In this document: piece after piece, positions 32,676-59,962 of the stretch
How positions within the stretch are numbered: position 1 is the first letter of the stretch
Layout of the letters: each line of letters begins with the position of its first letter
NCBI GenBank assembly: GCA_049599475.1
Contig: JBMYOQ010000007.1
Span: 32,001 to 96,000, forward strand
Origin: Opitutales bacterium
GTDB taxonomy: Bacteria > Verrucomicrobiota > Verrucomicrobiia > Opitutales > JABSRG01
DNA length: 64,000 nt
Direction of reading: 5' to 3'
Made by a program: the position numbers and the translations under genes
The notes under the pieces: generated by a model
Database searches by the model: none
What the model saw: the letters and a program-made list of their open reading frames with translations, nothing else
What the model was told of the DNA's origin: nothing

Positions 32676-33854
32676 CTAGAATTGTGGGAAACCGGGGTCG
32701 TTATTCTCAACGATGGCTAGGCCCTCAACTTCGATGAGCCAATCTGGACGGCATACCGAGCCCGCGACGATGATACTGGGCGTATCGCCCATGCGTATTT
32801 TCCATTCTCTTTTGATTACTCTAGAATCTGCAGGGTCGCGTAAATAAATGAGCCAATGTTGCATGTCGCTGAGGCCTGCCTTGGCTTCTTTCAGGAGCGC
32901 ATCCACATTCTCGATCGCACGTGCGAGTTGGTTCACCACATCGTTTTTGTGCAATACTTCGCCATTAGAATCTATACTTGCGGTGCCTGATATGAAGATG
33001 TGTTTGCGGTCCTGGTAACTTATGGCTGTGGCTCGTTCAAAGCGCACGCCGTAGCGGTCTGTTCGGCTAAGGTAGTCCGCCGCTTGCAAGTATTGTATCT
33101 GGCCTTGAGATAGTCCCGATACGGAATAGGTATCCATGGATACACGGGCCTGTGGATGTGCGAGACGCGCTTCGATACCGGTGCTTGCGATGTAATGAGA
33201 ATGCGGGTTCAATCCCTCTCGATCAAACACTTCATTGCGACCACTTACGACGCCGGCGTAATTGTGGTCGACATCGCGGACGTGTAGCCATGTGCGCACC
33301 GCCTCGTTTAAGAGAGTGCCGCGGATATGAGAGAGTTCATGTGTGTATTGATCGAACACCGATACCGTTTGCTCGTGGGTGGAGTGTTCGCCGGGATCAG
33401 TGAGTCCGGTGCTCCAAACGTGTTGCAACTTGCCCCGAGTGCGTTTCCAAGTGCTCTTTCCGATCTGAGTAATGTCCGAGTCATTATCTACGACATGATA
33501 TGCTAAAAGCACCATCTTACTGCCATTCATGGGTGCCTGCCCGATCATTGAGACCGCACATTCCTCTCTCGAGCCTAGAGGGTGTCGCTCTAATTCGATA
33601 CACTGGTTAATCACATCGCTTAGGAAAAAGCGTCTCCAGATGGCAGATCCATTTTTAATGCCCAGTTGTTCAAGAGTCTTTAAATAGACGGTCTGAGTCG
33701 TGTCTAGTTGCTCGGAAAAACTCCCTGTAGCGAGTGGTTTTACGATAATATGAAACTCATTCGCGGTTGAGGAATTTCCGAATCGTGAAATCTCCACTTC
33801 GGCTCGAGGGTCATCAAATTTTATGCTGAGCTTCATCTTTTTAAACGGATTCAA
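32676..33854 (-). CDS. Rid/YjgF-fold hydrolase, long chorismatase (FkbO/Hyg5)-like form
   Basis: RTWLHVRDVD, ASTGI, FERATAI, ISGTASID, VCRPDWLIEVEG. Confidence 0.8.
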   Translation of the reverse strand: MNPFKKMKLSIKFDDPRAEVEISRFGNSSTANEFHIIVKPLATGSFSEQLDTTQTVYLKTLEQLGIKNGSAIWRRFFLSDVINQCIELERHPLGSREECAVSMIGQAPMNGSKMVLLAYHVVDNDSDITQIGKSTWKRTRGKLQHVWSTGLTDPGEHSTHEQTVSVFDQYTHELSHIRGTLLNEAVRTWLHVRDVDHNYAGVVSGRNEVFDREGLNPHSHYIASTGIEARLAHPQARVSMDTYSVSGLSQGQIQYLQAADYLSRTDRYGVRFERATAISYQDRKHIFISGTASIDSNGEVLHKNDVVNQLARAIENVDALLKEAKAGLSDMQHWLIYLRDPADSRVIKREWKIRMGDTPSIIVAGSVCRPDWLIEVEGLAIVENNDPGFPQF

Positions 33855-35641
33855 AGAGTGTGGACGTATTCAATAAGTTGATCCAATTCTTCGGAAGAGA
33901 GTTGATCGGTCTCTCCGTGCATGTGCTCTGGGTTAAATCGTGTCATGGATTCATGGATGCTTGTTGCGCGCCCGTCGTGTAGGTAGGGGGCTGATCGCCA
34001 AACTTCTCGTAGAGTAGGTACATCGAATTTTAACTCACTTTCATCGTCGATTCCGGTTCCGACCCACTCGAGAGCCTTGTTTGTGTAGTTGTTGCCGTTG
34101 TGGCATTCCGCACATCCCGCTTTACCGCGAAAGAGGCGTTTCCCTTGTTCAGCGCTTGGGCTCAGGTTTCCGTCGATTAAATAGGGGCTAGGTGTTTGGC
34201 TGAGTGAGCTCAGGTAAAAGTCGATCGCCTGGGCATCCGACTCAGGCATAGCACTCCTTAGGAACTTGATTCCAGCACGCACGGAAGTCTCTGCATTGGG
34301 TCTGATCCCAGTGACGGTTGTCGGAGGCGTCTGGTGTGCAAGCAGGAGAGATTTTGCCTGGCGTGGGGTGCCTACGCCGTCATTCTCTAAGTCCCAGTTC
34401 AAGGCATCGGTTCGAGCATCTGGGTGGCAGCTCGCACATGACATCCAGTTCTGAAAACTATGCATAGCGTTGTGAAAATGAAATTCTCCCTGACGCGAAG
34501 CTCTTAGAGCTTTGGGCGGAAGTTCAAGTGATATTTCGGATTCAGACGAGCTGAACCTTTCGACTGCGTTGTTAAAGTAGGACGCGATTAGTAGACTATT
34601 ACTTTGAGGGTCGAAGGATAAGGCTCTTGGGCCGAGGCCCTTCAGGTCGAAGCGCCTCTTCCATGCATAGCCGAGGCGTAAATCATAGCCCATTTGCTCG
34701 CGCTCTTGCTCGGAGAATGACTCTAGAGTTTGAATAAGTGCGGGATAGTCTATCTCAATGATCTGGTGCGTCCCAGATAGGCTTACCCAGGCTTTTGTAT
34801 CGCTTATTTGAATATCCCATGGATTGGCCGCGCCACGATACAGATCATCCAGTAACAAGGTGCCGAGCATCTTAGCATTGTCTAAATCGATTACGGACAA
34901 GCCGTTTTTAATGATCCATCCACGTTCGATTTGCGTGGCCGGCACGCGATGGCTTCCGATCGTCATGGCTGATAGAGCGTAGCGCTTGTCAGGAGTGAGT
35001 GCGAGTTTGCGGGCACCAGAGCTGCCATCCTCGAGTGGGATTTCCGTTATGCGACCATTGCGTGTATTGAGCTTCGCGATACTCACGCCGGTCCAGTCTG
35101 CATTTGCGGACCGATCGCTGAGGTGATGAAGTACGACGAGTTCACTATCGTGTCTCCAATGGAGGTCGACGGGTTCGCGCAATACGGGGTGCTTTGCGCT
35201 TATTTGCCAGGTGCGCGCATCGTAGATCCAAACTTCGTTTTTAAAGCGCTGAGAAATTGCGAGCTGAAATCCGTCGGGACTGAAACAGGGGGCCTGAGGG
35301 CTGTGTCCAGCTTTGAAGGATTTCTTAGTCTTAAGCGATTTTGATTCGAGAATGTGTATATATCCGGTTCCTACGCCGCCGGTGACAATCAAAGATCCCG
35401 AATCTTGGGAAAGAGTCATACCCATTGGAAGGGCGGGCAGGGTGGTCCTGGCGATTAATTCATTGTCCCTGGAGAACCGATAGATCTCGTTGGTCAGGGA
35501 TGCTGCAAGATAGTATGATCCATCCGAAACCTGCAGAATATTTTCGAGACCCCAGTCGCCCTCGTATTCCGTATTCCCGTAAAGGCCAGCGAGCATGAGC
35601 CCGAAGGATAAAGCAGTGACCTGGAGCCATTTTAACATCAT
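33851..35641 (-). CDS. Exported YVTN-type beta-propeller fused to a di-heme cytochrome c (CCP/MauG-like) domain
   Basis: Signal peptide; propeller repeats (AGHSP, REP, GAANPW, GLGPR); CASCH and CAECH; FDVPTLREVWRSAPYLHDGR. Confidence 0.88.
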   Translation of the reverse strand: MMLKWLQVTALSFGLMLAGLYGNTEYEGDWGLENILQVSDGSYYLAASLTNEIYRFSRDNELIARTTLPALPMGMTLSQDSGSLIVTGGVGTGYIHILESKSLKTKKSFKAGHSPQAPCFSPDGFQLAISQRFKNEVWIYDARTWQISAKHPVLREPVDLHWRHDSELVVLHHLSDRSANADWTGVSIAKLNTRNGRITEIPLEDGSSGARKLALTPDKRYALSAMTIGSHRVPATQIERGWIIKNGLSVIDLDNAKMLGTLLLDDLYRGAANPWDIQISDTKAWVSLSGTHQIIEIDYPALIQTLESFSEQEREQMGYDLRLGYAWKRRFDLKGLGPRALSFDPQSNSLLIASYFNNAVERFSSSESEISLELPPKALRASRQGEFHFHNAMHSFQNWMSCASCHPDARTDALNWDLENDGVGTPRQAKSLLLAHQTPPTTVTGIRPNAETSVRAGIKFLRSAMPESDAQAIDFYLSSLSQTPSPYLIDGNLSPSAEQGKRLFRGKAGCAECHNGNNYTNKALEWVGTGIDDESELKFDVPTLREVWRSAPYLHDGRATSIHESMTRFNPEHMHGETDQLSSEELDQLIEYVHTL

Positions 35642-36538
35642 CTAGAAATTTTCTTCTGAGAACGGGTGCCCGTTGGGCAGATAGGCGATGCCTGCGACTT
35701 TGTCATACCCGTCTAGGTACCAAGAGTGCACGATCTTTTTGAGATTTGGATCGAATTCGAAAAGGTCAGGAAGGTCTTTGTGCTTATGCCATGTGGCGAC
35801 TAAGAGATTGCCCCCTGGAAGTAATGTAATCCCTGTCGCCGGCACCGCTTTTGCCAGCCCGAGGTCTTCGGAGAACTTTAGCGTCCATTCGTGATTTCTA
35901 CGCTTATCGAAGCTGGCTAGTGCATTGCGGTAAGCGATGAATGTGCCGCCATCTTCCCGGCGAAGAGCTGAGGTGATTGTAGGGAGGTTTCGAATCTCCC
36001 ATATTACCTCGTGAGTGTCGGGGGCGATCTCGCGAAACACGCCTGCATTTGTCATGGGGACGAGTAAATTGCGACCTCCTTTAACGACATAGCGGAATTG
36101 ACCGTGGGTCTTTGATTTGAGTGGGGACACACGAGTGGTTCGAATTGCCGCGCCATTGTGATCGAGCGTGACCAGTTCACCTTTACCCTCATGGGCAATG
36201 AGGTATTTCCCTTTTTCTAGGGTGAGGGCAGTCGCGTTTTCAGCTCCGGCAGGGACATGGTAATTCCAAATGGGTGAGCCATCTCTTGCGAGAAGCCTGG
36301 CACCGTCGATAGTCGCACAAAAGATCTCACCTGTTTCGGTGGTGCTGACCTGCTGCGGGTGCTTGAGGCCCTGCTGAGAGCGCCATACGACATCTCCTTC
36401 TCTATTTATTGCGAATAGGGCATCTGGACTATGGCTCGTCAGTAATATGTGGTCGCCTTCAATTAGCTGCCCCTCATACGCCATAGCGGAAGTAATCCAT
36501 AAACAGGCGGCTCCGAATAGATGCTTTAGCATGCTCAT
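35642..36538 (-). CDS. Exported beta-propeller protein (PQQ/arylsulfotransferase-like blades)
   Basis: Signal peptide; repeated G.VVW/IW blade motifs; abuts or overlaps its neighbours. Confidence 0.7.
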   Translation of the reverse strand: MSMLKHLFGAACLWITSAMAYEGQLIEGDHILLTSHSPDALFAINREGDVVWRSQQGLKHPQQVSTTETGEIFCATIDGARLLARDGSPIWNYHVPAGAENATALTLEKGKYLIAHEGKGELVTLDHNGAAIRTTRVSPLKSKTHGQFRYVVKGGRNLLVPMTNAGVFREIAPDTHEVIWEIRNLPTITSALRREDGGTFIAYRNALASFDKRRNHEWTLKFSEDLGLAKAVPATGITLLPGGNLLVATWHKHKDLPDLFEFDPNLKKIVHSWYLDGYDKVAGIAYLPNGHPFSEENF

Positions 36539-39500
36539 TTGTTATCTTTCTCTTCGATGACTATACGGAAGCCCACGTCGTGAACTTTTTGCCAAGCATG
36601 GTATGCTAGGCGGTAGGAGGCTGTGGCTCTGTAAGGGCGATCTCGATACGAACCACCACGCACGACTCGACGCAATTGGGGATCGTCAGCACTGGAAGAA
36701 TTTGAATCCACAAAGGGGTAAGGGCGATTTACAGAACGGGTCCATTCGGCTACGTTGCCGTGCATGTCGTAGAGACCCCAAGGGTTGGGTAGGTATGTGC
36801 CTGGAGAGGTCTGTATTTGCTGACCGTCGTTTACTCCTTCGATATAGGGTATCCACATCTCATGGCGGTTGGGATTAGTCATAGTCACGATCTTGGTGTA
36901 GCGCGGGCTGCCGGAAGCGGTATTTTCCCCGAAGCGTTTCATGCTCGCGTCGCTCAGGTTCGCAAATGTCGAGAAGTCTGTATTCAATTCCCCATACCAA
37001 AAGCTGCTCTCCCGACCCGCTCTTGCGGCCCATTCCCATTGTGCTTCTGAGGGAAGGCTTACACAGTAGCCAGTTTTCTCGCTTAGCCACTCACAGAACG
37101 CCATTGCGGTTTTCCAGGAGACACGAACTGCTGGAAGTTCATCGCCATTTACAGAGATGCCCTCTTGTCCAAACTGTAGATTCAGGCGATCTTCCATGCG
37201 AGAATTGTGGTCTAATACGAAGTGACGCAATTGCTGGTTCGTAATTTCCTTGGAGGACATCCAAAATGCCTTTTCGATTTTTACGGAATGGCGAGGAGCC
37301 TCAGCTTGGGTCTCAAGATTAGACCCCATTGTGAAAGTGCCTGAAGGGATTGGAAGCATGTCGATCAGCTCGCCATCGCCTAGGTCGATTTGAATCGACG
37401 TTGATTGAGTGTCCGTTACTTCAACGCTGAAATCTGATTGCTCCGCACTTGGAGTATTGGGGGCAGTCACTGGGTTCTGTATATGTTTTACCAATACAGC
37501 TTTTGCCTCTGGAGGATCTAAATGGACGAAATTGTCTCGACCCGCGTATTTTTGGCTGAGTTCATTGCCTCGTGCAAAGGTCCGCTCCAACTTTTCGCGA
37601 TTGATGGTACGGTGTTTTATATCCTGAACGAGATCTCTGCGATAGCCGTGAAAGGGAGCGTTGTAGTCCATCCACGTTTTGAGATGAAGCAGCTCCTTTT
37701 CAGTCAGAACAACACCGTGGTGTCCTTTTTCTAGAATTTGGGTCAGCTCAGAGACAATTGCACCGTACTCACCCGGATTGGGGACATCCATTGGGCTCTC
37801 GGTCCCAGGGTGGCGAACGAGGCTATGAAGGGTCATGTAACTCTCTGTGAATTTGCCTCCGTAGATGGGGTTTGCAGCACCACCCGAGCGGTTTTCGTAA
37901 TCGTTTATAGGGGTTGCTCGGAGGTCGGGTATGCCATCCGCGAATTCTGGACGCCGGGTGGTGAATCGCCCATTGCTGGCTTGGCCGTCGTGACAGCTTA
38001 CGCAGTTTGCATCGAGTATGGGCTGTATTTCATGGGCGAAGCTTATGGGACGTGCAATATCGAGCCAGGTAGTGAGGGGCTTGGGCTCTTGGATGCTTGC
38101 TAGAGTTGCTGTGGGGCGCGGCATATCGCTCGCAGGTTCGTGACAGCCGACACAGCTCATGCGTTCTCCTCCCATTGCTGTGGCCCAAGAACGCATGCCT
38201 TGCAGGGCCTGACCATGTTTATCCAGGGGTTGAAAAAACAGAGGTGTTTTCGAAGGGATTTTTGCCGTGAGAGAACCGTCTTCATTGACAGGGGTTACGC
38301 CGATCACCGTTTTTACATCCCAACCGCTATCAACACCGATTGTCCCCGGATGACCTCCGGCTCCGCCATGGGGTGAGAATTGATAGGTCCCGATACGGAG
38401 TTGTTTTACGGTGCCTCGAGGAATGTCTTTGAGGCCGGGGCCGTGATAGATGTCTTGGACGTAGATTGTAGCCTCGTCGCTATCGGGTTTTATGAGGGAC
38501 GGAATGACCGGGGGCTTTGTTTGCTTGCGCAAGGGGATCGGTTCCAGAAAGCCTTTACCTTCTTCTTCCCAGAGTAATACCGCATTGTCATAGATATCTA
38601 CGAGATATATGCCGCGAAGCAGGTCGAAATCACGTTGCATGCTTACGAGAAAAAACTCGCCTGCGCCCGCATGCGTCCCTTCCTGGGCGAGTGGGAAGGG
38701 GTGTAGGATTTGAGGCATCACATCGTGCATAAGGGGATCCTTTACGACACGCTTTACCTTCTTGTTGTAACCAGGTAGCTCCCGGACGACTGCTTTTTCA
38801 TTTTGAGTGTGTACCGCAGGATCAATTACAATCATACGACCGACACGCATGGGCCCGTGGTGACCGCTGATCGTGCCAACAATTTGACTCGGGTGTCCTG
38901 GAATGGGGCGAGCGTAGAAGAAGCTCGCGGGGAAATAGCTGTTGCTGAAAGCGATACTCTTTTGGCCGGAACCGTCGGGATTCATGACCATCAAGACGCG
39001 ATTATTACTGTGCTGCATATCGCTATATTCCCAGCGCGTATACATAACACGCCCGTCTTGGAGCATTGTAGGATACCATGATGTGTCTTGGTCGAAGCCC
39101 AGCTGTCGGACTGTTTGACGATCCTTTTCCATGCGATAGAGGCTCGCCATTCTCGGTATCCCGTTGATACAGGGCATGCCTAAAAATGTGGCGGTGGATG
39201 CGAAAATGATGCCGCCATCTGGAAGATATACACCGTCGAAGTGGTCTACGTCGCTTCCATCATCGGGGCCGAGCTCCACAGGGGAACCTCCGCGTAGATC
39301 CATTTCGAACAGGCGGTAAGCTCTGTCCTTCGGTCGTGACATGGAAAACATAATACGCTCTGCATCGTAGTGTAGGTCGACGTAGTTAATGTTTCCTCCG
39401 TGTTCAGAATGATAAACCGTCTCACGCTCAACGGTATCCGAAAAAACGTTCTTCAGCCGTATAATACTCGTGTCCCACCCATTGCGCTGGGACTGGGCGA

Positions 39501-39879
39501 GGCTATTGTAATTACCCTTAGCTAAACCTAAGTTCCTTCCATCTGCTTCGCGGGCTCTCTCTCCCAATACGCGTTCGATTAAAAGAATGTCTGTGAAATC
39601 GAGGGATGGATTGGAGAGAAGTGCCTTACGTTGAAGGTTTTTAATGGCATAATAATCCGCGTCGGAGAGCGTCGCGAGTTCTTCGAGGAAGCGTTCGCCA
39701 GGATAGGCGTCTTTATGAGTTTCTTCGATAGCGAGAATGGCTCGTGTCAATGTGGTCCTAATTTCAGACGCGGTTCGTGCGAAATAGTAGCCGTCAGCTG
39801 CTCGCGTTGAGCCTGCGGCGATCAGGAATATGGCCCACAGCGCACATATGCTTTTGGGGCTTCGATACATAGCTAGCAT
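36535..39879 (-). CDS. HzsA-like (hydrazine synthase alpha-like) di-heme protein with C-terminal FGE/SUMF1-type domain
   Basis: TolB-like propeller (YLPDGGIIFAST, GRVMYTRWEY, MNPDGSGQ); FQPLDKHGQALQGMRSW...SCVGCHE; SF..EIQPILDANCVSCH; FTMGS...LPSEAQWEWAARAG, NPWGLYDMHGNVAEW, RGGS, GFRIV. Confidence 0.85.
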   Translation of the reverse strand: MLAMYRSPKSICALWAIFLIAAGSTRAADGYYFARTASEIRTTLTRAILAIEETHKDAYPGERFLEELATLSDADYYAIKNLQRKALLSNPSLDFTDILLIERVLGERAREADGRNLGLAKGNYNSLAQSQRNGWDTSIIRLKNVFSDTVERETVYHSEHGGNINYVDLHYDAERIMFSMSRPKDRAYRLFEMDLRGGSPVELGPDDGSDVDHFDGVYLPDGGIIFASTATFLGMPCINGIPRMASLYRMEKDRQTVRQLGFDQDTSWYPTMLQDGRVMYTRWEYSDMQHSNNRVLMVMNPDGSGQKSIAFSNSYFPASFFYARPIPGHPSQIVGTISGHHGPMRVGRMIVIDPAVHTQNEKAVVRELPGYNKKVKRVVKDPLMHDVMPQILHPFPLAQEGTHAGAGEFFLVSMQRDFDLLRGIYLVDIYDNAVLLWEEEGKGFLEPIPLRKQTKPPVIPSLIKPDSDEATIYVQDIYHGPGLKDIPRGTVKQLRIGTYQFSPHGGAGGHPGTIGVDSGWDVKTVIGVTPVNEDGSLTAKIPSKTPLFFQPLDKHGQALQGMRSWATAMGGERMSCVGCHEPASDMPRPTATLASIQEPKPLTTWLDIARPISFAHEIQPILDANCVSCHDGQASNGRFTTRRPEFADGIPDLRATPINDYENRSGGAANPIYGGKFTESYMTLHSLVRHPGTESPMDVPNPGEYGAIVSELTQILEKGHHGVVLTEKELLHLKTWMDYNAPFHGYRRDLVQDIKHRTINREKLERTFARGNELSQKYAGRDNFVHLDPPEAKAVLVKHIQNPVTAPNTPSAEQSDFSVEVTDTQSTSIQIDLGDGELIDMLPIPSGTFTMGSNLETQAEAPRHSVKIEKAFWMSSKEITNQQLRHFVLDHNSRMEDRLNLQFGQEGISVNGDELPAVRVSWKTAMAFCEWLSEKTGYCVSLPSEAQWEWAARAGRESSFWYGELNTDFSTFANLSDASMKRFGENTASGSPRYTKIVTMTNPNRHEMWIPYIEGVNDGQQIQTSPGTYLPNPWGLYDMHGNVAEWTRSVNRPYPFVDSNSSSADDPQLRRVVRGGSYRDRPYRATASYRLAYHAWQKVHDVGFRIVIEEKDNK

Positions 39880-39895
39880 AGGGGAAATTTTTGAG

Positions 39896-41047
39896 TTAAG
39901 CGGCAGATTCTAAGATTTTCATTACATCTTGGTGACTGTAGTCGCTGATGCCCCAACGTTTACCTAAATCGATTGCGTCGGTGGCAATCGATGGAATTTC
40001 GTTAATCGGAATTTTACCTTCTGTGAGCGTAGTTGGACTGTCGATACTCCGGAACCATGCTTCCAGAGCGTCGATGCCCGCTGCGGCCGAATCCAGACCA
40101 AACACTTCACGGGCGAATTGTGTCAGTTTTGAGGCATAGCGGTCTTGGACGTATCGCATCCACGCGGGCATTACGATAGATAGCCCCGCTCCGTGAGCGA
40201 TATCGTAGCGACCGCTTAGAGGGTGCTCTATCATGTGATTTGGGAAACCCATATTGCCGACCCCGGATACGCCCAAACCATTCCATGCAAGCGTGGCAGC
40301 CCACATCATTGTGGATCGTGCTTCGATGTCTTGCGGATCCTTCATTATGCGGTCGGTGGTTTCGATAATCGTTTTCACGAGCCCTTCCACGTATCGGTCT
40401 TGAATCGGTGTCCACCGGGCATCTCCAGTGAAGTAGCCTTCAATGAGGTGCGATATCGCATCGACTCCAGCATAAGCGGTGTAGTCTAAGGGAATGGTGA
40501 GCGTGAGCTCAGGGTCCATCAATGCTGCTTTAGGGAACAGATGCTCGGAAAAGAACCCAAATTTCTCTTTTGTATCATCATTGGTGATGACTGAGCACGA
40601 ATTCATCTCGGAAGCCGTCGCTGGAAGGGTGGGCACTGTGATAATGGGCAATCCGGTTTGTGGTGTAGCTTCGCCGCTGTAGAAATCCCAAGGATCTCCC
40701 GCATGGTGAACGCCTACGGCTATTCCTTTGGCTTCATCCATTACGCTGCCACCTCCTACAGCGATGATGACATCGACTTGAGAGGAGCGTGCACGATCAA
40801 TGCCTTCGCGTAAATGAGAGAGCGACGGGTTCGATTTTACACCGGAGAATTCTGTTACCTGCCCGAAGCCTACTGAACGCAGCGACTTTAATATTTTTTC
40901 GTAGGTACCATTCTTTTTGATACTCTGTTTTCCGTAAACAAGCAACGCGTGGTTACCGTAGCTCGCTGCGATGGGGCCAACTGAATCGGATGCGGCACCT
41001 TGTGCAAAAACAACTTTGGTGGGATTATAGAACTCGAATGCTTTCAT
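39896..41047 (-). CDS. Iron-containing alcohol dehydrogenase (BdhA/YqhD-like)
   Basis: FEFYNPTKVVF, AVGGGSVMD, TLPATASE, DAISHLIE, HMIEHPLS, HGAGL. Confidence 0.93.
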   Translation of the reverse strand: MKAFEFYNPTKVVFAQGAASDSVGPIAASYGNHALLVYGKQSIKKNGTYEKILKSLRSVGFGQVTEFSGVKSNPSLSHLREGIDRARSSQVDVIIAVGGGSVMDEAKGIAVGVHHAGDPWDFYSGEATPQTGLPIITVPTLPATASEMNSCSVITNDDTKEKFGFFSEHLFPKAALMDPELTLTIPLDYTAYAGVDAISHLIEGYFTGDARWTPIQDRYVEGLVKTIIETTDRIMKDPQDIEARSTMMWAATLAWNGLGVSGVGNMGFPNHMIEHPLSGRYDIAHGAGLSIVMPAWMRYVQDRYASKLTQFAREVFGLDSAAAGIDALEAWFRSIDSPTTLTEGKIPINEIPSIATDAIDLGKRWGISDYSHQDVMKILESAA

Positions 41048-41385: not shown

Positions 41386-41856
41386 TCACCAACGAAGCTT
41401 CGTAATTTCCCCATGGTAGGGCCATTCATCAGGTTCATCCACTAACCCGGCTCGAACTGGGTTCTGTTTAGCGTACTCCCATTGAGTCGAATAGTGTTCT
41501 CCGTTGCGCATCTGCGTATCCCAACAGCCTTTCAGCCAAAGGTCTCTCTGGCTTTGGAATTCAGATGCCTTCGAAACAAGGGTTTTCCAATATTTGATCC
41601 AAAGGTTGAGCGGTACTCTATCTACCCTCGAAGGTGAACAGAAAAGGTGGATGTGATCGGGCATTAAAACATACTTTCCTACAGCCCAGTGGTCCGCTAT
41701 TGCCCACGCTTCGACGAGGCATTTATGAGCTTCTCTGTTATTGAATGCGGGTCGACGATTTTTCGAGCATACCGTGACGAACAGAATATTCGGTCGACCT
41801 GCGATATCTAGAATCGAATTTTTAGAGGGGCTTTTTCGTTGAACGCTCTGACTCAT
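41386..41856 (-). mobile_element. REP-associated tyrosine transposase (RAYT, IS200/Y1 HUH family)
   Basis: FVTVC, YVLMPDHIHLF (HUH), W...WD..MR, YAKQNPVRAGLV...WPY. Confidence 0.9.
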
Positions 41857-42097
41857 GCAAATTGAGACGCCGGCGCTCTTCTGAATTTCAGTTCAATTTC
41901 AATCCCACCCAAAGGTCGCTGGGGACTTCGGACGGAGGCTTGCCGGAGATGGCGAAGCAATGGCGCTGCATTTAGGGTGATGTCATCGGTAGCGGCCGAT
42001 TTCCGAGCGGCCGAATGCGGCGTATCAGCTGGGCGAGATTGCTGTCTTCCACCGCTCGGAGATGGGTGGCTACCCCTATTTTTCTCTAAAGCGCTAT

Positions 42098-42116
42098 TGG
42101 GGACAGCGACCCTCCC
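42098..42116 (-). repeat. Degenerate REP copy upstream of the RAYT
   Basis: Minus strand GGGAG-GGTCGCTG-TCCCCA; right arm decayed. Confidence 0.55.
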
Positions 42117-42194
42117 TGGAATTCTCAAGGGCGCAATGTATCTTTCGGACAGCCTAAGAGACAGTCCCTTTCAAAAGGCACTCTTACCCCTGTT

Positions 42195-43256
42195 TTACTT
42201 TGTAGCGACGTAGGCTGGCTCGGTGAGGCGCTTGGGCTCAAATTCTCCTGCGGCCCAGCTGCTGATTTTGCCTTTGAGGTAGTCTACCCATTTGGGGTGG
42301 AGGTTGAGGCAAGGGATCATTTCGAAGGATTCACCGCCCGCTTCCATAAAGGATTCTGCACCTTCCTCGGCGATTTCTTCGAGGGTTTCCAGGCAGTCTG
42401 CGGTGAACGCTGGGCACATGATTTTGACCTTTTTGATCCCTTGCTCAGGTAGCGACTCGAGAGTCTTGTCTGTATAAGGTTGGAGCCAGGGTTCGCGACC
42501 GAGTCTAGATTGGAAAGTAACCATGTATTTTTCCTTCGGCAGCCCAAGCTTTTCCACGAATTTCTCCACCGTCATAACGCATTGATGGCGGTAACAGGTG
42601 GCATGCGCGGGGTGGCACGTATTGCAGCAATCAGGAGTCTGCATGCAATGCTTGTGTGAAGGGTCACCCTTTACCAAGTGCCGTTGAGGGATACCGTGGA
42701 AAGAGAAAATAAGTTTGTCGTAATCCTCTTCGAGATAGCTCTTCGCGTTCTCGACCATGGCATCGATGTAGCCAGGATCATCATAGTAGGGTTGCAGCAG
42801 CGTTGTCTTGAGATCGGGTTTTATCTTACGGATCTCGTCCATCGCATAGACAACTGCGGTCTCATAGCTAGACATTGCATAGTGAGGATACATCGGCATG
42901 ATGTAGAGCTCGTCTACGCCCGCATCGAGGAGCTTCTTCACGGCGTCTGGAGTGGATGGGCTTCCATAGCGCATGGCCATCTCGATGGGGAAATCGAAGT
43001 CTTTTGCGACGAGTTCACGGAGCGCCATGCTCGTAATGATCAAGGGCGAGCCTTCCTTTTGCCAAATGCTTTCGTAGGCCTCTGCTGATTGCTTCGGACG
43101 AAACGGCAGGATAAAGGCGTTGACGACCAGTTTCCGTATCAGCTCTGGAGAATCCAGAACCCGTTCGTCCATCAGAAATTCTTTGAGATAGCGTCGCACG
43201 TCAGCCACGTCAGTGGAGTCCGGCGAGCCAAGGTTGAGCATAAGTACGCCACGCAT
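42195..43256 (-). CDS. hemH: Ferrochelatase with internal Cys-rich insertion
   Basis: [54 protein letters not shown]. Confidence 0.97.
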
Positions 43257-47180: not shown

Positions 47181-49265
47181 TTAACTGACCGGCATCGGGG
47201 GTCTTGTGAGCTTTTCGGCGATTTCTTCGCGCTCAGATTCTTCGATATCTCCCAGGATGTCCATGATCGTAATGATGCCGACAGTCTTCGAATCCTCGGT
47301 GACCATCACTTTGTTGGCCCCCTCGCGTACCATGATTTCGAGGGCTAGGCTCACCTCGGACATGGGGTGAACCTGTGGTACATCGCGCAGGTTTAGCGCG
47401 CTCAGATCAGAAGTCTGTGTGACGCCTTTTTGCTTGATGTAGTCGTAGAAATCGTCGCGACGGAAGACGCCTAGAAGTTTCTCAGTCTCCGGCTCGGTTA
47501 CGGGATAAATAGTGTGGCGGGTTTCTTTGAAAATCGAGAGGGTCTGCGCCACGGTAGTATTGCTCGGGATCGAGCTGACCTTTGGAATCATCTGCTCGGA
47601 AACAGGACTGCTCAGGAGGCTGTCGGGCAGCTGCTCGAACATCGATTGCAGATCCTCGGTAGTGCGATATTGCTGGGCTGAGCGCTTAAGTAGGCGTTGG
47701 AAATAGGTAGAGGTGCCCATGACTGCCTTGAACTCTCCACTGCTCAGGGCAATGAGGGTTGTCGCTTGTTTGGCTACAGCCTGGAAGCGCCAAGTGTCGT
47801 CTTCGAAAAGGGCACGTTCACCGAAGAATTCTCCTGCGCGGATCGTCTTGATCAGCTCGTCGCCATCGACGATGTCAATGCGTCCTGTCTTAACGACGTA
47901 GAAGGAGAATGCTGGTTCGCCCGGGTTGAATAGAATATTGCCTTCTTCGAGATAGACTTCTTGAAGCGAGCGGGTGTAGCGCGGACTGATTACATTTATG
48001 TCGCGCGGGAAAAATAAGTCCAAGGTCCAGTCGATCATGACCCGTAGCTTTCGGTCGACACCTGGCAATTTGCTAAGGTAGATACTCCGCCACATGAACC
48101 AGGCGATAAATCCTGAGAAATTGATGCCCATCACACTCGCCACGGCTGTCCGGTGACCAATCGCAGCCAATTCTCCAAGTCCGGTGAATTTGAAAGGCTT
48201 CGGCTTCTTGTCCCGTTGTAGGGCTACAAGGTTCTTTCCGAGTAAAACGCCCTGACGCATCGCGAACTGAGCGGTGGGCGCACAGGTTTCTTCCGATTTC
48301 CACAAGGGTACTGCGGCGCAGTCCCCGGCAGCATACACATAATCGGTGCCGACCACCTTCATGGTGTTGTCGGTCTCGATACGGCCACGGAAATTTTTAA
48401 TATCAAATTTGTCGCACAGGTCGCGGATCACGGAGTGAGGTGCAGTACCAACCGTCGATACGACACAGTGGCTCTCAATGATATCTCCATTATCCAGATA
48501 CACCTGTTTGGAGGTCAGCGCTTTCACGCGTCGGTTCAGAAGGATATCGAGGCCGCGTTGCCGCAGCATCTTTTCCGCATAGCGGCCCAACTTCTCTGAA
48601 AGGGTCGGCAAAAGGACGTCCCGACTGTGTATCAAGACAACTCTAAATTCATCCTCCGAAATGTTTGTATAGAATTTGGTGATACCATGAAACAAGTCTA
48701 CGATCTGTCCCGCTGTTTCGACCCCTGAATATCCCCCGCCAACGACGACAAAGGTAAGCAGGCGTTTTTTGATCTCCGGATCTGTCTGGATGTTTGCCTC
48801 TTCAAAACGCCCAATGATGGTGGCGCGCAGTTTCATAGCATCACCCACGTTTTGCATCAAAAAGGCGTGTTCGGGCATGCCGGGCACGCGGCTCAGGTCG
48901 ATTTCTGCGCCGAGCGCTAGGACAAGGCGTTTAAATTTTAGGCTCACCTTGGGCGAGAAGCTACCTGCGTTGAGCAGGACTTCCTTTTTCTCGTAATCGA
49001 TTTCCTTAACGCGACCTTTGAAAACACTCACTCCGCGGCAGAAGGTCCTCAGTGGATTGACCACAGCATTCGATGCCAGGGCCGATCCCGCGACCTCCGG
49101 TAGCATCGGCTGGAAGACGAGATAATTGTCTTCAGAAATGAGCGCCGTAGTCTTGGCCTCTTCAGGCGGGAGCATCTGACCAATGGTCTTAGCGCAGTAT
49201 GCACCCGCGAACCCGCCCCCCAGGATTACGGTGTCCATAGTAATCGTCTTAGTCGAATCGCTCAT
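47181..49265 (-). CDS. Type II NADH dehydrogenase-like flavoprotein fused to cNMP-binding and CBS domains
   Basis: ILGGGFAG, VVGGGYSGVETAG, AAGDCA, PTAQFAMRQG; GEFFGERAL cNMP motif; two CBS-like repeats ending VGIITIMDIL. Confidence 0.9.
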   Translation of the reverse strand: MSDSTKTITMDTVILGGGFAGAYCAKTIGQMLPPEEAKTTALISEDNYLVFQPMLPEVAGSALASNAVVNPLRTFCRGVSVFKGRVKEIDYEKKEVLLNAGSFSPKVSLKFKRLVLALGAEIDLSRVPGMPEHAFLMQNVGDAMKLRATIIGRFEEANIQTDPEIKKRLLTFVVVGGGYSGVETAGQIVDLFHGITKFYTNISEDEFRVVLIHSRDVLLPTLSEKLGRYAEKMLRQRGLDILLNRRVKALTSKQVYLDNGDIIESHCVVSTVGTAPHSVIRDLCDKFDIKNFRGRIETDNTMKVVGTDYVYAAGDCAAVPLWKSEETCAPTAQFAMRQGVLLGKNLVALQRDKKPKPFKFTGLGELAAIGHRTAVASVMGINFSGFIAWFMWRSIYLSKLPGVDRKLRVMIDWTLDLFFPRDINVISPRYTRSLQEVYLEEGNILFNPGEPAFSFYVVKTGRIDIVDGDELIKTIRAGEFFGERALFEDDTWRFQAVAKQATTLIALSSGEFKAVMGTSTYFQRLLKRSAQQYRTTEDLQSMFEQLPDSLLSSPVSEQMIPKVSSIPSNTTVAQTLSIFKETRHTIYPVTEPETEKLLGVFRRDDFYDYIKQKGVTQTSDLSALNLRDVPQVHPMSEVSLALEIMVREGANKVMVTEDSKTVGIITIMDILGDIEESEREEIAEKLTRPPMPVS

Positions 49266-54057: not shown

Positions 54058-54210
54058 AGCCGTGAACGATGGAGGGCTTGAAATTTTAGATCCAGATCAA
54101 TCTGCGAATTAGTCGAGAATTCTTATCTCGGTATGCAGCTCAAGTGCTTTCGGTTTCTCGATTGCTGATACCGATTGCCAAACACGATATCTTTTATTGA
54201 ATGGCGGTTT

Positions 54211-55974
54211 ATGGATGCCTTGGTCACCGCTCCCGCAATTGAGAAAATCGCCGTATTTAATGCCCGCAATTGGCTGGTGCTGCAGAGGCGTGTAGGCACA
54301 TCTGAGTGGGGACTGATCCCTTTGGATTTAGAGAAGGTGAGCATTGATCGAAAAGGGCGTTCTATTCTGGAAATTAGTGAATCGATCCGCTCAGTGGTCG
54401 CCCTAGTCCCAGGGACAACAATCGGGTTCGCCAGGCTGGAAGATCCTTCAGACGATCTGCCGACTGCAGATGGCTGGGAGTCTCGTTGTTTTACTTTCAG
54501 GGAGCTATGGTTGAAATCCGAGCCGGGTGACGAATACCACTATTTGAGAGAGTCTCTTGAGAGCATGCGCCCAGAGTTGGCTAAGGTGCCTTATTTGAAT
54601 TTCGGCCGTCATGATTTCATCTACCGTTTCCGATCCGACAAGGAGCGCAACAGCGCCGCGTACACGATCGACGAGGAGTCCGCGGCTTTGTACCAGAGCC
54701 GGATATGTGCGTTGATCAAGGCTGCAAAGCGACAAAAGGAGAATTCTGCAGGGAAGCCGGCGTTTATAGATTTTGGACCCCTTCAATATGTGATTCCAAG
54801 CCACTTCGGCTTTTGTTTAGGAGTCCAGAATGCGATCGAGCGTGCCTATGAAACGCTGGCAGCCAATCCTGGTAAGCGCGTCTTCATGTTGAGTGAATTA
54901 ATCCATAACCCGTTTGTGAACGAAGATCTTCAGAAACGAGGTTTACGTTACCTTCAATCAGATAAGGGCAAGCCTACGATCGATGCCGAGACGGGTCGTT
55001 TGGCTTGGGATACGCTTAGCTCGGATGATGTCGTGATTATTCCGGCATTTGGTGCGACTCGTGAGGACAAGGCGCGCCTGGTGGAGCATGGATTATCTAT
55101 TTCTGAAAATGATGCTACCTGCATGCTTGTTGAAAAAGTATGGAAGGCTGCGGCTCGCTTTGGGGAAGCCGGATATACCGTGGTGGTTCATGGAAAAGCA
55201 GAGCACGAAGAGACCAAAGCTACCTTTTCGCATGCGTCTCAGTGGGGGCCGTCTTTAACGATTCGCAACTTCGAAGAGGCGCTAGTACTTGAGAATATGA
55301 TACGCTCCAAAGTCGATGCAGAGAAGCGTTCGTTGCTGACATATTTTGCTGGGCGTCACTCTGTCGGTTTCGATCCAACGAAGGATTTGGAGAAAATCGC
55401 TTTTGTGAACCAAACGACCTTATTGCGCAACGAGACGCTCAAAATCATTGGGCACTTCCGAGATCTATTTACTGAGCTGTATGGCGCCGATGGCGCGGCT
55501 GAGCGTGTGAACGGTAAGGGGCAGGGAGACACGCTTTGCTACGCTACGCAGGTCAATCAAGATGCTTTGCACCTAGCTCTGGGTGGCGATGTTGACTTTG
55601 CTTTTGTCGTTGGAGGTAAGAATTCTTCCAATACATACCAGCTGTTTAGAGTGTGTGAGTCAAAGCTCGGAGAGGCTGCATACTTTATTCAAAACGAAAA
55701 AAATATCGGAGATACTGCGGTCCGCCATTATATTTTCCCTCAAGACCCTAAGGATAAAAAGCAGGGGGTTTATGTAGAGCGAGCATTCGACTTTGGAGCT
55801 AAAGTTCAGTCTCTCGGGCGCCCGTTGAAAGTATTGATAACCGGTGGGGCTTCGTGCCCAGATGGTATTATTCAGCAAGTAATCACCCGAATAAACGGTA
55901 TGCTGGCTTCCGACGGGCAGACGCTTCGCGCGGTTGATGAGGTCCTTGCTGATTTCGAAGAGACTGAAAGCTGA
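54211..55974 (+). CDS. ispH: 4-hydroxy-3-methylbut-2-enyl diphosphate reductase with long N-terminal extension
   Basis: FGFCLGV, ELIHNP, PAFG, DATC, HEET, NQTT, DTLCYATQ, VGGKNSSNT, GASCPD. Confidence 0.93.
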   Translation: MDALVTAPAIEKIAVFNARNWLVLQRRVGTSEWGLIPLDLEKVSIDRKGRSILEISESIRSVVALVPGTTIGFARLEDPSDDLPTADGWESRCFTFRELWLKSEPGDEYHYLRESLESMRPELAKVPYLNFGRHDFIYRFRSDKERNSAAYTIDEESAALYQSRICALIKAAKRQKENSAGKPAFIDFGPLQYVIPSHFGFCLGVQNAIERAYETLAANPGKRVFMLSELIHNPFVNEDLQKRGLRYLQSDKGKPTIDAETGRLAWDTLSSDDVVIIPAFGATREDKARLVEHGLSISENDATCMLVEKVWKAAARFGEAGYTVVVHGKAEHEETKATFSHASQWGPSLTIRNFEEALVLENMIRSKVDAEKRSLLTYFAGRHSVGFDPTKDLEKIAFVNQTTLLRNETLKIIGHFRDLFTELYGADGAAERVNGKGQGDTLCYATQVNQDALHLALGGDVDFAFVVGGKNSSNTYQLFRVCESKLGEAAYFIQNEKNIGDTAVRHYIFPQDPKDKKQGVYVERAFDFGAKVQSLGRPLKVLITGGASCPDGIIQQVITRINGMLASDGQTLRAVDEVLADFEETES

Positions 55975-57884: not shown

Positions 57885-58925
57885 TTACGCAAAGCGTCCG
57901 CAAATTTGTTCCCATAGAACAGCCGCGCGTTCGGCGAAAGTCGTGCGCACGCGATCGACTTCGGCCATGCGCGATTGAAGGTTTTGGTTCGCTATTTCTG
58001 CGAGATCTTTGAGATCATAGAGGAATACGTTGTCCATATCCTGTACGCTAGGATCGATGTCGCGCGGCATCGCTAAATCTATCAGAAAGTGCGGAATGTA
58101 GGGACGCTCGTTCTGCGCTTTTTCGATATCCTCACGGTGAAGGACGAGGTCTGGAGCGGACGTCGATGCCACGATGATATCGAAATCTGCCAGATGTTTG
58201 CTGAAATGTTTGAAGTCTAGAGCGGCTCCCGCAAAACGATCAGCCAGGGCCCGGGCGTTCTCATAAGTCCTGCTGCTCACTGTTATATGTTTCACGCCAC
58301 GGCCATGAAGAGCTTCGATCGTTTTTTCGGCGACTTCGCCGCTGCCGAGGACTAAGACGCGGCTCTTGTTGAGCTTGCCGTAAATGCGAGATGCCAGTTC
58401 GACGGCGACCATACCAATGCTGGTCTGTCCCTTGGCGATTCCGGTGTGCGTGCGTGCCCATTTGGCATGTTGGAATGACTTTTGAACAATGCGATTGAGG
58501 ACAGGGCCTACTGCAGATGTCTTCTGGGCCTGAGCGTATGAATCCTTTACCTGTCCCAGAATCTCGTTCTCCCCGACCATCATAGAATCCAGACCGGCCG
58601 AGACTTCGAAAATATGCTGGATTGCGGCATCGTTTTGTAGGGAAAAAGCCTTCTGCTCAAGAGCTCTCGGGTCCAGGCCTCGGAAGGAAGGTAGGTATGA
58701 GGCGAAATCGCGTGGCCCTTCGCTATCGCGACAGACCCCGTAGAGCTCGACGCGGTTGCATGTGTTTAGGAGCATACACTCTTCTACTCCGTTTAGTTCG
58801 CGGAAGTAGGCGTAGGCGTCCAGCATGCGGTCGGGCTCGATACTCAAGCTCGCTCTCAGGTCCTCGGGGGTGGTCTTATGGGTGGCTCCCCAGGCAAAAA
58901 GGTGAAGATTTGCGCTGCTAGCCAT
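57885..58925 (-). CDS. hemA: Glutamyl-tRNA reductase (short form lacking most of the C-terminal dimerisation domain)
   Basis: LNTCNRVELY, GLDSMMVGENEILGQVK, LGSGEVA, IDLAMPRDID. Confidence 0.95.
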   Translation of the reverse strand: MASSANLHLFAWGATHKTTPEDLRASLSIEPDRMLDAYAYFRELNGVEECMLLNTCNRVELYGVCRDSEGPRDFASYLPSFRGLDPRALEQKAFSLQNDAAIQHIFEVSAGLDSMMVGENEILGQVKDSYAQAQKTSAVGPVLNRIVQKSFQHAKWARTHTGIAKGQTSIGMVAVELASRIYGKLNKSRVLVLGSGEVAEKTIEALHGRGVKHITVSSRTYENARALADRFAGAALDFKHFSKHLADFDIIVASTSAPDLVLHREDIEKAQNERPYIPHFLIDLAMPRDIDPSVQDMDNVFLYDLKDLAEIANQNLQSRMAEVDRVRTTFAERAAVLWEQICGRFA

Positions 58926-59772
58926 TGGTTTCCAAGAGAGGTTGTTCTCCCAGTTCGTCCTTCGGATCGCCGCTTACGGGGCCGAGTGAAATGAGGAGAC
59001 CCGCAAACAGTGTAATGCTTGCCATTGCGAAGCGTTGCGGGCGGAGAATATTTCTCCACTTCAGGATAAACACGACAATGTAGGCAATCCAGAGGGCAGT
59101 CGTTACGCCAAACTTGCTAATCGACACCGTATCAGGGTCCTTCAAAATGAAGTTGAAGCCGACGCCCAGGGCGAATGTCATCAATATAATTCCGGTGATC
59201 AGAAGACGGCTGCCCACCATATCAAGCTCTTGGATTGATGGCAGAAAATTGAAAATGGGTTTGGAGCGTTTGGCTTTCAGGCCGCGTTGCTGGATCAAAA
59301 ACATGATCGAAATGAGAGCGAGCACTCCCAGCATTCCGTAGCTAAACATGGCTAAGGCTGCGTGTAGCTCGATCCATGGATTTCCACCGAAAACACGTTC
59401 TTCGTAAGAATAGTCCCATCCAGGCACAGCCAAAGATAGAATGTTCAAGATTGAGGCAAACCCTGCTACAAAGATCCCGAGCAGGTTTAATCGATAGAAG
59501 GGAAAGGTGACTAGAAAGAGAAAAACTGCGGACCAGGTCAGGAACTGAATGATTTCCATGGGATTGCCCAGGGGGCAGCCTCCTATCTCCTTGCCACGTA
59601 CGCTGAGAGCCATGAATTGGACAATGAATGCGCCCCAAAGTGCGATGTATTTTAGGGGCCTACCATAGCGTTCATTGCGGAACAGTTGCCCAAGCGAAAG
59701 CAGAAATACCCCAGTGTAAATAGCTGTGGATAAAACCAGGAGCGCTCGGTCGTCTGTGAACCAGTCTAGCAT
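58918..59772 (-). CDS. ccsA: Cytochrome c assembly protein (CcsA/YpjD-like)
   Basis: About 8 TM; GCPLGN, WIELHAALAMFSY, LPSIQELD; overlaps hemA. Confidence 0.8.
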   Translation of the reverse strand: MLDWFTDDRALLVLSTAIYTGVFLLSLGQLFRNERYGRPLKYIALWGAFIVQFMALSVRGKEIGGCPLGNPMEIIQFLTWSAVFLFLVTFPFYRLNLLGIFVAGFASILNILSLAVPGWDYSYEERVFGGNPWIELHAALAMFSYGMLGVLALISIMFLIQQRGLKAKRSKPIFNFLPSIQELDMVGSRLLITGIILMTFALGVGFNFILKDPDTVSISKFGVTTALWIAYIVVFILKWRNILRPQRFAMASITLFAGLLISLGPVSGDPKDELGEQPLLETNG

Positions 59773-59962
59773 ACTTGTAATCGAGAATATTAGCTCAGCG
59801 TGGGCCAAGCTTCAATATGAAATAAGTGAGCGTGGGGAAGAGGTGCAATCCCCATCGATGTCATCTGTAGAGGTTAGCTTATTCGAAGGAAGGAGTTCCG
59901 CTGAGTTGGAAGAGGTGCGTTTTCGAAACTGCCACCCCTTGTGGTCCTGATCAAAAATTTGT

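Follow-up and report, generated by a model that had tools for sequence, protein, structure and literature searches.

Why would a bacterium of the class that contains Akkermansia carry genes that resemble those of hydrazine synthase (HZS), the enzyme of anaerobic ammonium oxidation (anammox)? The question is raised by five co-oriented genes on the minus strand at positions 32676-41047 of a 64,000-nucleotide (nt) stretch, hereafter the window, of contig JBMYOQ010000007.1 from an Opitutales bacterium (Verrucomicrobiota; assembly GCA_049599475.1). In order, they encode a Fe-containing alcohol dehydrogenase (Fe-ADH; 383 amino acids (aa); PF00465; 39896-41047), an HzsA-like protein (α; 1114 aa; 36535-39879), a stand-alone propeller (298 aa; 35642-36538), a fusion of HzsB- and HzsC-like parts (βγ; 596 aa; 33851-35641) and a cytoplasmic, chorismatase-like protein of the Rid fold related to Hyg5 and FkbO (392 aa, or 386 from the ATG; 32676-33854). 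A sequence-only reading of the window had proposed that the three middle proteins rebuild the HZS module set as a periplasmic haem complex. Our analysis finds that the operon, judged by sequence profiles and predicted structures, is certainly related to HZS, that it is almost certainly not a hydrazine synthase, and that it belongs to a real and conserved system in which the chorismatase-like gene is the most tightly co-occurring partner of βγ. We regard it as possible, though short of probable, that this system is a modular and likely exported haem enzyme on the HZS scaffold, in which a shared βγ activator serves many substrate-specific α subunits and a chorismate-derived aromatic takes part.

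Results

The α, β and γ folds of HZS and its four c-haem motifs are all present in the operon. The 1114-aa protein consists of a likely signal peptide, a helical domain, a β-propeller, the HZS_alpha middle domain (PF18582, 93 bits, residues 489-581), two c-haem sites and a C-terminal FGE-sulfatase-like domain (PF03781, 147 bits; residues 840-1107; 36559-37362); the sequence-only reading had named the propeller, the middle domain and the haem sites correctly but overlooked the last domain. A profile of 49 α N-terminal regions matches chain A of the 'Ca. Kuenenia stuttgartiensis' HZS structure (5c2v_A) with an E value of 2.5e-36, and an AlphaFold (AF2) model with a predicted local distance difference test score (pLDDT) of 91.7 has the same chain as its best Foldseek match (template modelling score by target 0.62). 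By profile and by model, the protein is to be regarded as a true HzsA homologue. The 596-aa protein combines a seven-bladed propeller with a CCP/MauG-like di-haem domain, as the earlier reading had described. Its profile search matched 5c2v_C (E 4.6e-23) and 5c2v_B (E 1.7e-13), its best Foldseek match was 5c2v_B, and VIA gave Z 41.5 with a root-mean-square deviation of 2.1 over 332 aligned residues (next row, Z 32.0); the γ fold is assigned by sequence profile only, and the α and β folds also by structure. These profiles and models mark the protein as a fusion homologue of HzsB and HzsC in which β is the N-terminal part. Homologues of all three HZS subunits are thus present, as had been suggested, but β does not correspond to the 298-aa propeller.

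The 298-aa protein, likely exported, gave no HzsB match and was instead a Mala_s_1/arylsulfotransferase-like propeller in the domain scan. In two other genomes (loci L105 and L191; 28-31% identity; E 2e-22 and 1e-30) α-like proteins carry a homologue of it as a C-terminal fusion, which suggests that it is an accessory of α. Its homologues stand alone beside α or βγ in 4/80 loci (L014, L029, L042 and L075), the four that served to build its search profile, which found two further weak matches.

The gene order, the intergenic gaps of 16, -4, 0 and -4 nt and the positions of the four haem motifs agree exactly with the earlier description. Such spacing suggests translational coupling of the five genes; the last gap of -4 requires a TTG start, and starting instead at the ATG six codons further in (33836), as the ESM Atlas entry does, changes it to +14. 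Hydrophobic N-termini consistent with the three proposed signal peptides were found by a hydropathy heuristic in the three middle proteins and in neither of the outer two. A promoter and terminator scan revealed no excess over shuffled sequences (8 versus 10.0 and 9 versus 12.1).

The haem motifs of α are CVGCH (αI, residues 576-580; 38140-38154), aligned to CSGCHY of HZS, and CVSCH (αII, residues 626-630; 37990-38004), aligned to CAMCH; those of βγ are CASCH (γI; 34424-34438) and CAECH (γII; 34100-34114), the latter placed by motif and profile alignment. About 0.003 CxxCH motifs are expected by chance per protein at generic residue frequencies, and both motifs are kept in 64/64 βγ and 99/100 α homologues; the four are therefore not chance occurrences. 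In the profile alignment His720/His721 of α (37717-37722) corresponds to αHis772, the distal ligand of haem αII in HZS, and H720 is kept in 100/100 and 48/49 homologues in two alignments, so that haem αII is probably bis-His. His575 of βγ (33917-33919; His in 57/64) aligns to the His of MHG in HZS γ as distal ligand of haem γII. Both electron-transfer haems, αII and γII, thus retain a distal His.

The residues associated with hydrazine synthesis are a different matter. As described in the available text of two papers, αTyr591 is the proximal ligand of HZS haem αI, γCys165 forms a third thioether at γI and αCys303 is a zinc ligand that is not universal in anammox bacteria (PMC12758564, PMC12607021); γAsp168 is the proposed proton donor (PMC12607021). 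In the window protein no Tyr follows the αI motif (CVGCH-EPAS), and Tyr occurs at His+4 in 1/100 and 0/49 homologues, so that haem αI probably has ordinary His ligation. Neither γCys165 nor γAsp168 has an equivalent at haem γI, since βγ has no Cys at 406-509 and 0/64 homologues have Cys or Asp in columns 450-463. α has no Cys in residues 238-575, the region of αCys303; the profile leaves this stretch unaligned, and Cys237 could substitute from another blade. Gln237 of βγ (61/64 homologues) occupies what we take to be the position of βGlu253 in the sixth-blade loop, with the offset inferred from structural alignment. The position of γHis144, which is where the inter-haem Trp of CCP/MauG sits according to the available text of PMC12758564, is Val443 here (V24, I16, S8 and A7 of 64 rows). 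The NCBIfam HZS models NF052339-NF052342 score 43.2, 53.4, 86.9 and 119.8 bits, the last for βγ, all far below their cut-offs of 800, 560, 625 and 1250. With the catalytic residues of HZS missing, N-N chemistry of the HZS kind, which the earlier reading had considered, is unlikely.

Two further α residues are invariant in 100/100 and 49/49 homologues, the propeller Cys237 (39169-39171) and His341 (38857-38859), and this conservation suggests a site that may bind a metal or be modified. FGE activity of the C-terminal domain was considered and ruled out: the domain has no Cys after residue 939, and the Cys pair after GGS[WYFA], presumably the copper-binding catalytic motif of FGE, is missing in 100/100 homologues. 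The domain is likely a binding module. It is also the sole source of the NCBI label 'SUMF1/EgtB/PvdO family nonheme iron enzyme' on α homologues.

Modelling indicates that α and βγ probably form a complex. In an ESMFold2 prediction of α residues 92-600 with βγ residues 24-490, run on our own alignments with three controls, the pair scored 0.74 against 0.01 for the best control; the runs agreed in at least 93% of contacts, with partner pLDDT of at least 84. The score mark is reached by 116/157 solved complexes and 2/215 mismatched pairs, counts that hold roughly for our own alignments. The predicted interface of 98-105 contacts involves the β sixth-blade insertion (residues 229-245; 34907-34957; family consensus PTTQLERGW), residues 318-325 and γ residues 394-397. 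The interface expected by the sequence-only reading is thus predicted for α and βγ, but 5C2V is a solved structure that the model may remember, so that the pass may show likeness only.

Homologues of these genes are numerous, as had been anticipated for other Planctomycetes-Verrucomicrobia-Chlamydiae (PVC) and Bacteroidota genomes: 1344 βγ-like matches were found among 7996 scored, and 3868 α-like matches among 7988. In 80 βγ loci of named genomes from Verrucomicrobiota, Planctomycetota, Hydrogenedentes, KSB1, Acidobacteria and others, α lies in 54, which bears out the expected synteny, and the chorismatase-like gene in 27; it is directly downstream in 25/68 loci with enough flank. A survey of 201 genomes of the phylum, each at least 90% complete, found α in 43, βγ in 44 and both in 41. 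The chorismatase-like gene is present in 43/44 βγ genomes (in 32 of them at a distance of at most 8 kb) versus 36/157 others, and the sole βγ genome without it is an assembly of 370 contigs. These counts overstate independence, because two families supply 21 of the 44 βγ genomes, though 14 families are involved. Among 61 closer relatives, queried with a single protein, it occurs in 7/8 βγ genomes versus 4/53 others, and in 5/5 genomes searched, of 53 whose βγ locus lacks it, it was found elsewhere. The chorismatase-like gene is therefore a conserved partner, which the earlier reading had under-rated. The Fe-ADH, proposed there as a second partner, has a homologue in 1/80 βγ loci, ~6 kb from βγ, and is probably a passenger, co-oriented with the operon as it is.

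Copy numbers reveal a further pattern. The α:βγ:chorismatase-like ratios are 59:3:1, 23:1:2 and 15:1:1 in the three richest genomes, chosen for their many α candidates. A domain scan of 46 of 79 α candidates found the FGE-like domain in 22 and F5/8, LamG, NPCBM, CBM35-like or GH2 sugar-binding domains in 6; further α-like matches beyond these also bear glycan-binding-type domains. No nitrogen-cycle gene was found among the recurrent neighbour clusters scanned. Three genomes of the host's order (L094, L095 and L195) show a second architecture. There βγ is accompanied by a di-haem propeller of ~1050 aa that does not resemble α, by the chorismatase-like gene and by two separate FGE-like genes; two of the three also have an FG-GAP gene near the cluster. 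PF18582 is also above its cut-off in Bacteroides thetaiotaomicron, which offers a second genetically tractable host.

The residues of the chorismatase-like protein point to Hyg5-type chemistry. Hyg5-type chorismatases are described in the available text of PMC7170507 by a catalytic Glu334 and a Gly173/Gly240/Cys327 signature. Y199, R206, R274, G290, C368 and E375 of the window protein are invariant in 54/54 close homologues and G226 is nearly so. In the alignment Y199, R206, R274 and E375 correspond to Y155, R162, R228 and E338 of FkbO, and G290, C368 and E375 to G240, C327 and E334 of Hyg5; all the Hyg5-type signature residues (E375, G226, G290 and C368) are thus present. The Tyr and two Arg (Y199, R206 and R274) we take to be the substrate-binding residues of chorismatases. 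A DAHP synthase above its cut-off lies beside the chorismatase-like gene or its βγ neighbour in 3/16 regions fetched (L194, L201 and L203).

Neighbourhoods of this gene were also surveyed in 80 metagenome loci anchored on the window's chorismatase-like subfamily. Imelysin/DHOR di-haem genes occur in 13, DUF1501 and PPC in 9 (7 with PSCyt2/PSD1) and ResB/CcsA in 10; at least one such partner is found in 26 and none in 54, many of whose contigs are short. Because the subfamily adjoins these three kinds of genes, its product seems to serve several exported systems. The idea that it always serves c-type cytochromes fails on the PSCyt2/PSD1 partners, which are without CxxCH (0/10), so that haem c alone does not account for what the partners have in common. 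One recurrent cluster reads porin, imelysin, DHOR di-haem protein, porin, mono-haem lipoprotein, chorismatase-like protein and ResB/CcsA (L127, L135, L151, L153, L163, L173, L185, L200 and others), some with hemerythrin, LuxR or FecCD iron transport genes. Another, of PSCyt2/PSD1, DUF1501 and PPC (L107-L120, L196-L198 and L219), usually ends in the chorismatase-like gene; its PSCyt2 protein is the one without CxxCH. Haem synthesis genes, ahbC and an ahbD-like gene, directly follow βγ and the chorismatase-like gene at L085:11431-15067 and L024:4332-6512.

Akkermansia muciniphila (G137) carries α with its FGE-like domain, βγ and the chorismatase-like gene in the same order as the window, each ~35% identical; its βγ bears a third CxxCH. 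This operon corresponds to Amuc_1290-1292 (1291 by name match, 1290 and 1292 by name and position). The supplement of PMC11480725 lists all three proteins as detected. In the same source the three transcripts rise together ~2.6-fold at the end of growth, with RNA log2 fold changes of -1.41, -1.31 and -1.48 for mid-log versus end of growth, compared with -0.58 and -0.09 for the next genes. By intensity-based absolute quantification (iBAQ), a rough measure from which we worked out the ratios by hand, α is at least 4x as abundant as βγ in 14/14 samples (PMC11480725). Mucin induction was rejected: the 83.6-fold protein ratio of Amuc_1292 in that supplement rests on a floor value of 1290000 in label-free quantification and is absent in iBAQ and RNA (PMC11480725). 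In a single soy/mucus table without replicates the values for the three genes are 8.2, 2.4 and 0.48. Contigs from RNA runs on the Akkermansia locus extend through the flanking genes too. Just upstream of the operon lies a U32-family gene (TrhP/UbiU-like, below cut-offs; L188:4660-5931), which may be there by chance. U32 hydroxylases use prephenate, another chorismate product.

The host genome of 4.68 Mb is 96.6% complete and holds one copy of each operon gene; its assembly contains no 16S gene. The nearest βγ relative (57%) is from an Opitutales metagenome-assembled genome, and the operon is present in 0/6 genomes of the host's family. Its GC content of 0.51 equals that of the flanks, so that there is no compositional sign of recent transfer. 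Nine very long open reading frames (ORFs; 1500-2600 aa) in the host, on contigs C14, C18, C40, C41, C47, C54 and C107, represent an expanded family of giant di-haem proteins: each bears a pair of CxxCH motifs, and each has a domain akin to the βγ profile (E 1e-23 to 1e-43). As to octahaem HDH/HAO enzymes, PF13447 has no match in the host or in any control genome, and three host ORFs have at least five CxxCH. The upstream hemH was considered as a part of the system and rejected, being linked in 0/80 βγ loci and separated from the operon by a transposase of the REP-associated (repetitive extragenic palindromic) tyrosine type (41386-41856; NF047646, 79.8 bits, just below the cut-off of 80), which is flanked by related inverted repeats (41294-41312/41347-41365 and 42098-42117); a hairpin lies at 41988-42074. 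Haem housekeeping genes of the window are ferrochelatase hemH (42195-43256) and hemA behind a CcsA/CcmC-family gene (57885-59808). Elsewhere it encodes a type II NADH dehydrogenase fused to cyclic nucleotide-binding and CBS domains (694 aa; 47181-49265), an unusual regulated form, and a 599-aa ORF (54175-55974) with a LytB/IspH domain at residues 209-573 and ~200 extra N-terminal residues without a Pfam match.

Discussion

How might such a system work? We propose that βγ would dock on α in the manner of HZS, by way of its γI domain and the sixth-blade loop of β. The bis-His haem γII would carry electrons, the open haem γI may activate a small molecule, and the product or redox equivalents would cross the α-βγ interface to haem αI. 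There α would hold its specific substrate, probably organic and carbohydrate-derived, by means of swappable modules, which may be the FGE-like domain and the separate 298-aa propeller here and F5/8, NPCBM, LamG or CBM35-like domains elsewhere. With modules that can be swapped, one βγ could serve many α paralogues. In the cytoplasm, the chorismatase-like enzyme would cleave chorismate, most likely to 3-hydroxybenzoate and pyruvate (EC 4.1.3.45), as its Hyg5-type residues suggest, and the aromatic may be exported as a redox mediator, ligand or cofactor precursor. The system likely needs the hydroxybenzoate that this enzyme would make.

Several observations weigh against this proposal. The chorismatase-like protein scores 50.9 bits with TIGR04444, far below the cut-off of 325, and aligns to Hyg5/FkbO over its C-terminal ~200 residues only, the N-terminal ~185 being without alignment. 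Among the loci anchored on its subfamily, βγ is found in 2/80 and α in 1/80; the dependence is one-way, in that βγ genomes need the chorismatase-like gene and not the reverse. The gene's position beside genes for haem synthesis and for the assembly of cytochrome c would also suit another role. Trp is not among the four commonest residues at position 443 (55/64 rows covered), and Val443 in the place of the inter-haem Trp argues against peroxidase-type activation. Clues to the substrate are weak: 40/46 α scanned have no recognised glycan-binding domain, and glycosidases and sulfatases beside 12 α paralogues of one genome (G254) are not significantly enriched, either among neighbours (13/65 versus 4/35 in the control, p 0.40) or per region (8/12 versus 4/8 regions of unequal size, p 0.65). 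Amuc_1290-1292 are not mucin-induced, with RNA log2 fold changes of -0.20, -0.22 and +0.33 in the supplement of PMC11480725. The reaction itself is a proposal.

Other explanations must therefore be weighed. It is unlikely that βγ is a MauG-like maturase, which would visit α once, install a cross-link or aromatic cofactor at Cys237/His341 and leave α to work alone. One βγ to many α, the CCP_MauG fold of βγ and the invariant Cys and His of α agree with such a role, and so does the Akkermansia βγ protein: in the supplement of PMC11480725 its iBAQ values (rough, ratios by hand) are 4- to 80-fold below those of α, while the two transcripts are of similar density. However, the position of the MauG Trp is Val443, and the large predicted interface is like the stable one of HZS. 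Haem γII, moreover, has His575 in the place of the Tyr ligand at the second haem of MauG.

We also doubt that the chorismatase-like protein assists in supplying haem or in maturing cytochrome c, an arrangement in which the α/βγ redox reaction would need no aromatic. The ResB/CcsA and DHOR genes in its neighbourhoods speak for this role, as do the ahbC (above cut-off) and ahbD-like genes that follow it in L085. Yet the Hyg5 signature is invariant, DAHP synthases are among the neighbours, the PSCyt2/PSD1 partners have no CxxCH, and hemH is linked in none of the loci searched.

Nitrogen-oxide chemistry, such as reduction or detoxification of NO or hydroxylamine or nitrogen transfer to an organic acceptor, seems quite improbable, although the sequence-only reading had suggested chemistry of this kind. 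The scaffold and the interface loop are shared with HZS, as are both electron-transfer haems, and many hosts are anaerobes, but γAsp168, γCys165 and αTyr591 have no equivalent and none is evident for αCys303, a single inorganic substrate would hardly explain the 59 α paralogues of one genome, and the recurrent neighbour clusters lack nitrogen-cycle genes. That the operon encodes a real hydrazine synthase, in a host with anammox potential, has homology alone in its favour and next to no chance, given scores of 43, 53, 87 and 120 bits against the HZS cut-offs, absent catalytic residues, a host in the class of Akkermansia rather than the Brocadiia, and orthologues in a mucin fermenter.

Extending the modular-enzyme proposal, we speculate that PVC bacteria and Bacteroidota preserve an ancestor-like form of HZS as a large and hitherto unrecognised class of haem enzymes of the periplasm. 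One βγ activator and a dedicated chorismatase would make or load a hydroxybenzoate-derived cofactor that powers dozens of substrate-specific α subunits, the same aromatic serving the imelysin-DHOR and PSCyt2/DUF1501 systems; this wider picture is rather unlikely as a whole. If true, anaerobes, among them Akkermansia of the gut, would share a new cofactor pathway of the cell envelope. The origin of HZS and the role of its many non-anammox relatives are treated as an open question in the available texts of PMC12758564 and PMC10732223. The family is common, with 44/201 genomes of the phylum and members in Planctomycetota and Bacteroidota, and its genes risk being read as a marker of anammox or being annotated wrongly as a non-haem iron enzyme. 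The near-strict co-occurrence with the chorismatase-like gene and the many-α, one-βγ pattern offer two direct handles on its function, and Amuc_1290-1292 is a single-copy three-gene operon whose proteins are all produced by a gut commensal that can be cultured.

The sequence-only reading knew of no assigned function for such genes, but the family itself has already been described (PMC10732223, PMC12758564, available text). In Phycisphaerae, hzsA lies upstream of a fused hzsBC, and a wider family with other substrates has been proposed, according to the available text of PMC10732223. Hägglund et al. 2025 describe, in the available text of PMC12758564, non-anammox clades I-IV of HZS homologues in which α lies beside a fused βγ, key residues are lost and the function is unknown; their residue analysis covers clades I-III and leaves out clade IV (Fig. 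S7 legend), and the rows of Akkermansia, A. lusitana and Bacteroides are close together in the text of Fig. S4. The operon shares with clade IV the co-located α and fused βγ genes. It differs from clades I-III, as described there, in lacking FG-GAP and ABC binding-protein genes; two βγ haems and haem αII are present, the αHis772 equivalent is kept and the CCP/MauG Trp is absent. By elimination of the features of clades I-III, the operon probably belongs to clade IV. The main text of PMC12758564 makes no mention of chorismatases, sulfatases, carbohydrates or Akkermansia, although its Tables S3-S7 may list neighbours. In the main texts of the literature, most subscription papers being outside this scope, we found no function of the family, no chorismatase link and no treatment of Amuc_1290-1292. 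The cluster type is thus published; we found no published account of the dependence on a chorismatase, of the copy-number pattern, of this clade's residue profile or of Akkermansia as a test case.

Compared with the Hyg5/FkbO/XanB2 chorismatases (TIGR04444; PDB 5AG3, 5A3K and 4BPS), the chorismatase-like protein shares the substrate-binding Tyr/Arg/Arg, the catalytic Glu and the Hyg5-type Gly/Gly/Cys, but sits with exported proteins instead of in polyketide or pigment clusters. The C-terminal domain of α has the FGE fold of FGE, PvdO and GldK/PorK (PF03781 over 840-1107; Foldseek template modelling score by target ~0.7), but differs by the missing catalytic Cys pair and by its fusion to a haem protein. 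The γ-like domain shares its fold and two CxxCH with the di-haem CCP/MauG family (PF03150), but is without the inter-haem Trp, has His and not Met/Tyr at the second haem and is fused to an HzsB-like propeller. The closest likeness is to HzsABC of 'Ca. Kuenenia stuttgartiensis' (PDB 5C2V/5C2W), which has the same α of propeller, middle domain and two c-haems, the same propeller with sixth-blade loop and CCP-like di-haem domain, the distal His of αII and γII and, as predicted for the window proteins, docking through the β loop; in 'Ca. Scalindua' the βγ of HZS is likewise fused. In contrast to HzsABC, with which they share 16-18% identity in structural alignment, the window proteins are without equivalents of αTyr591, γCys165, γAsp168, βGlu253 and γHis144, with none evident for αCys303, and their system adds an FGE-like domain, dozens of α paralogues, a chorismatase-like partner and non-anammox hosts.

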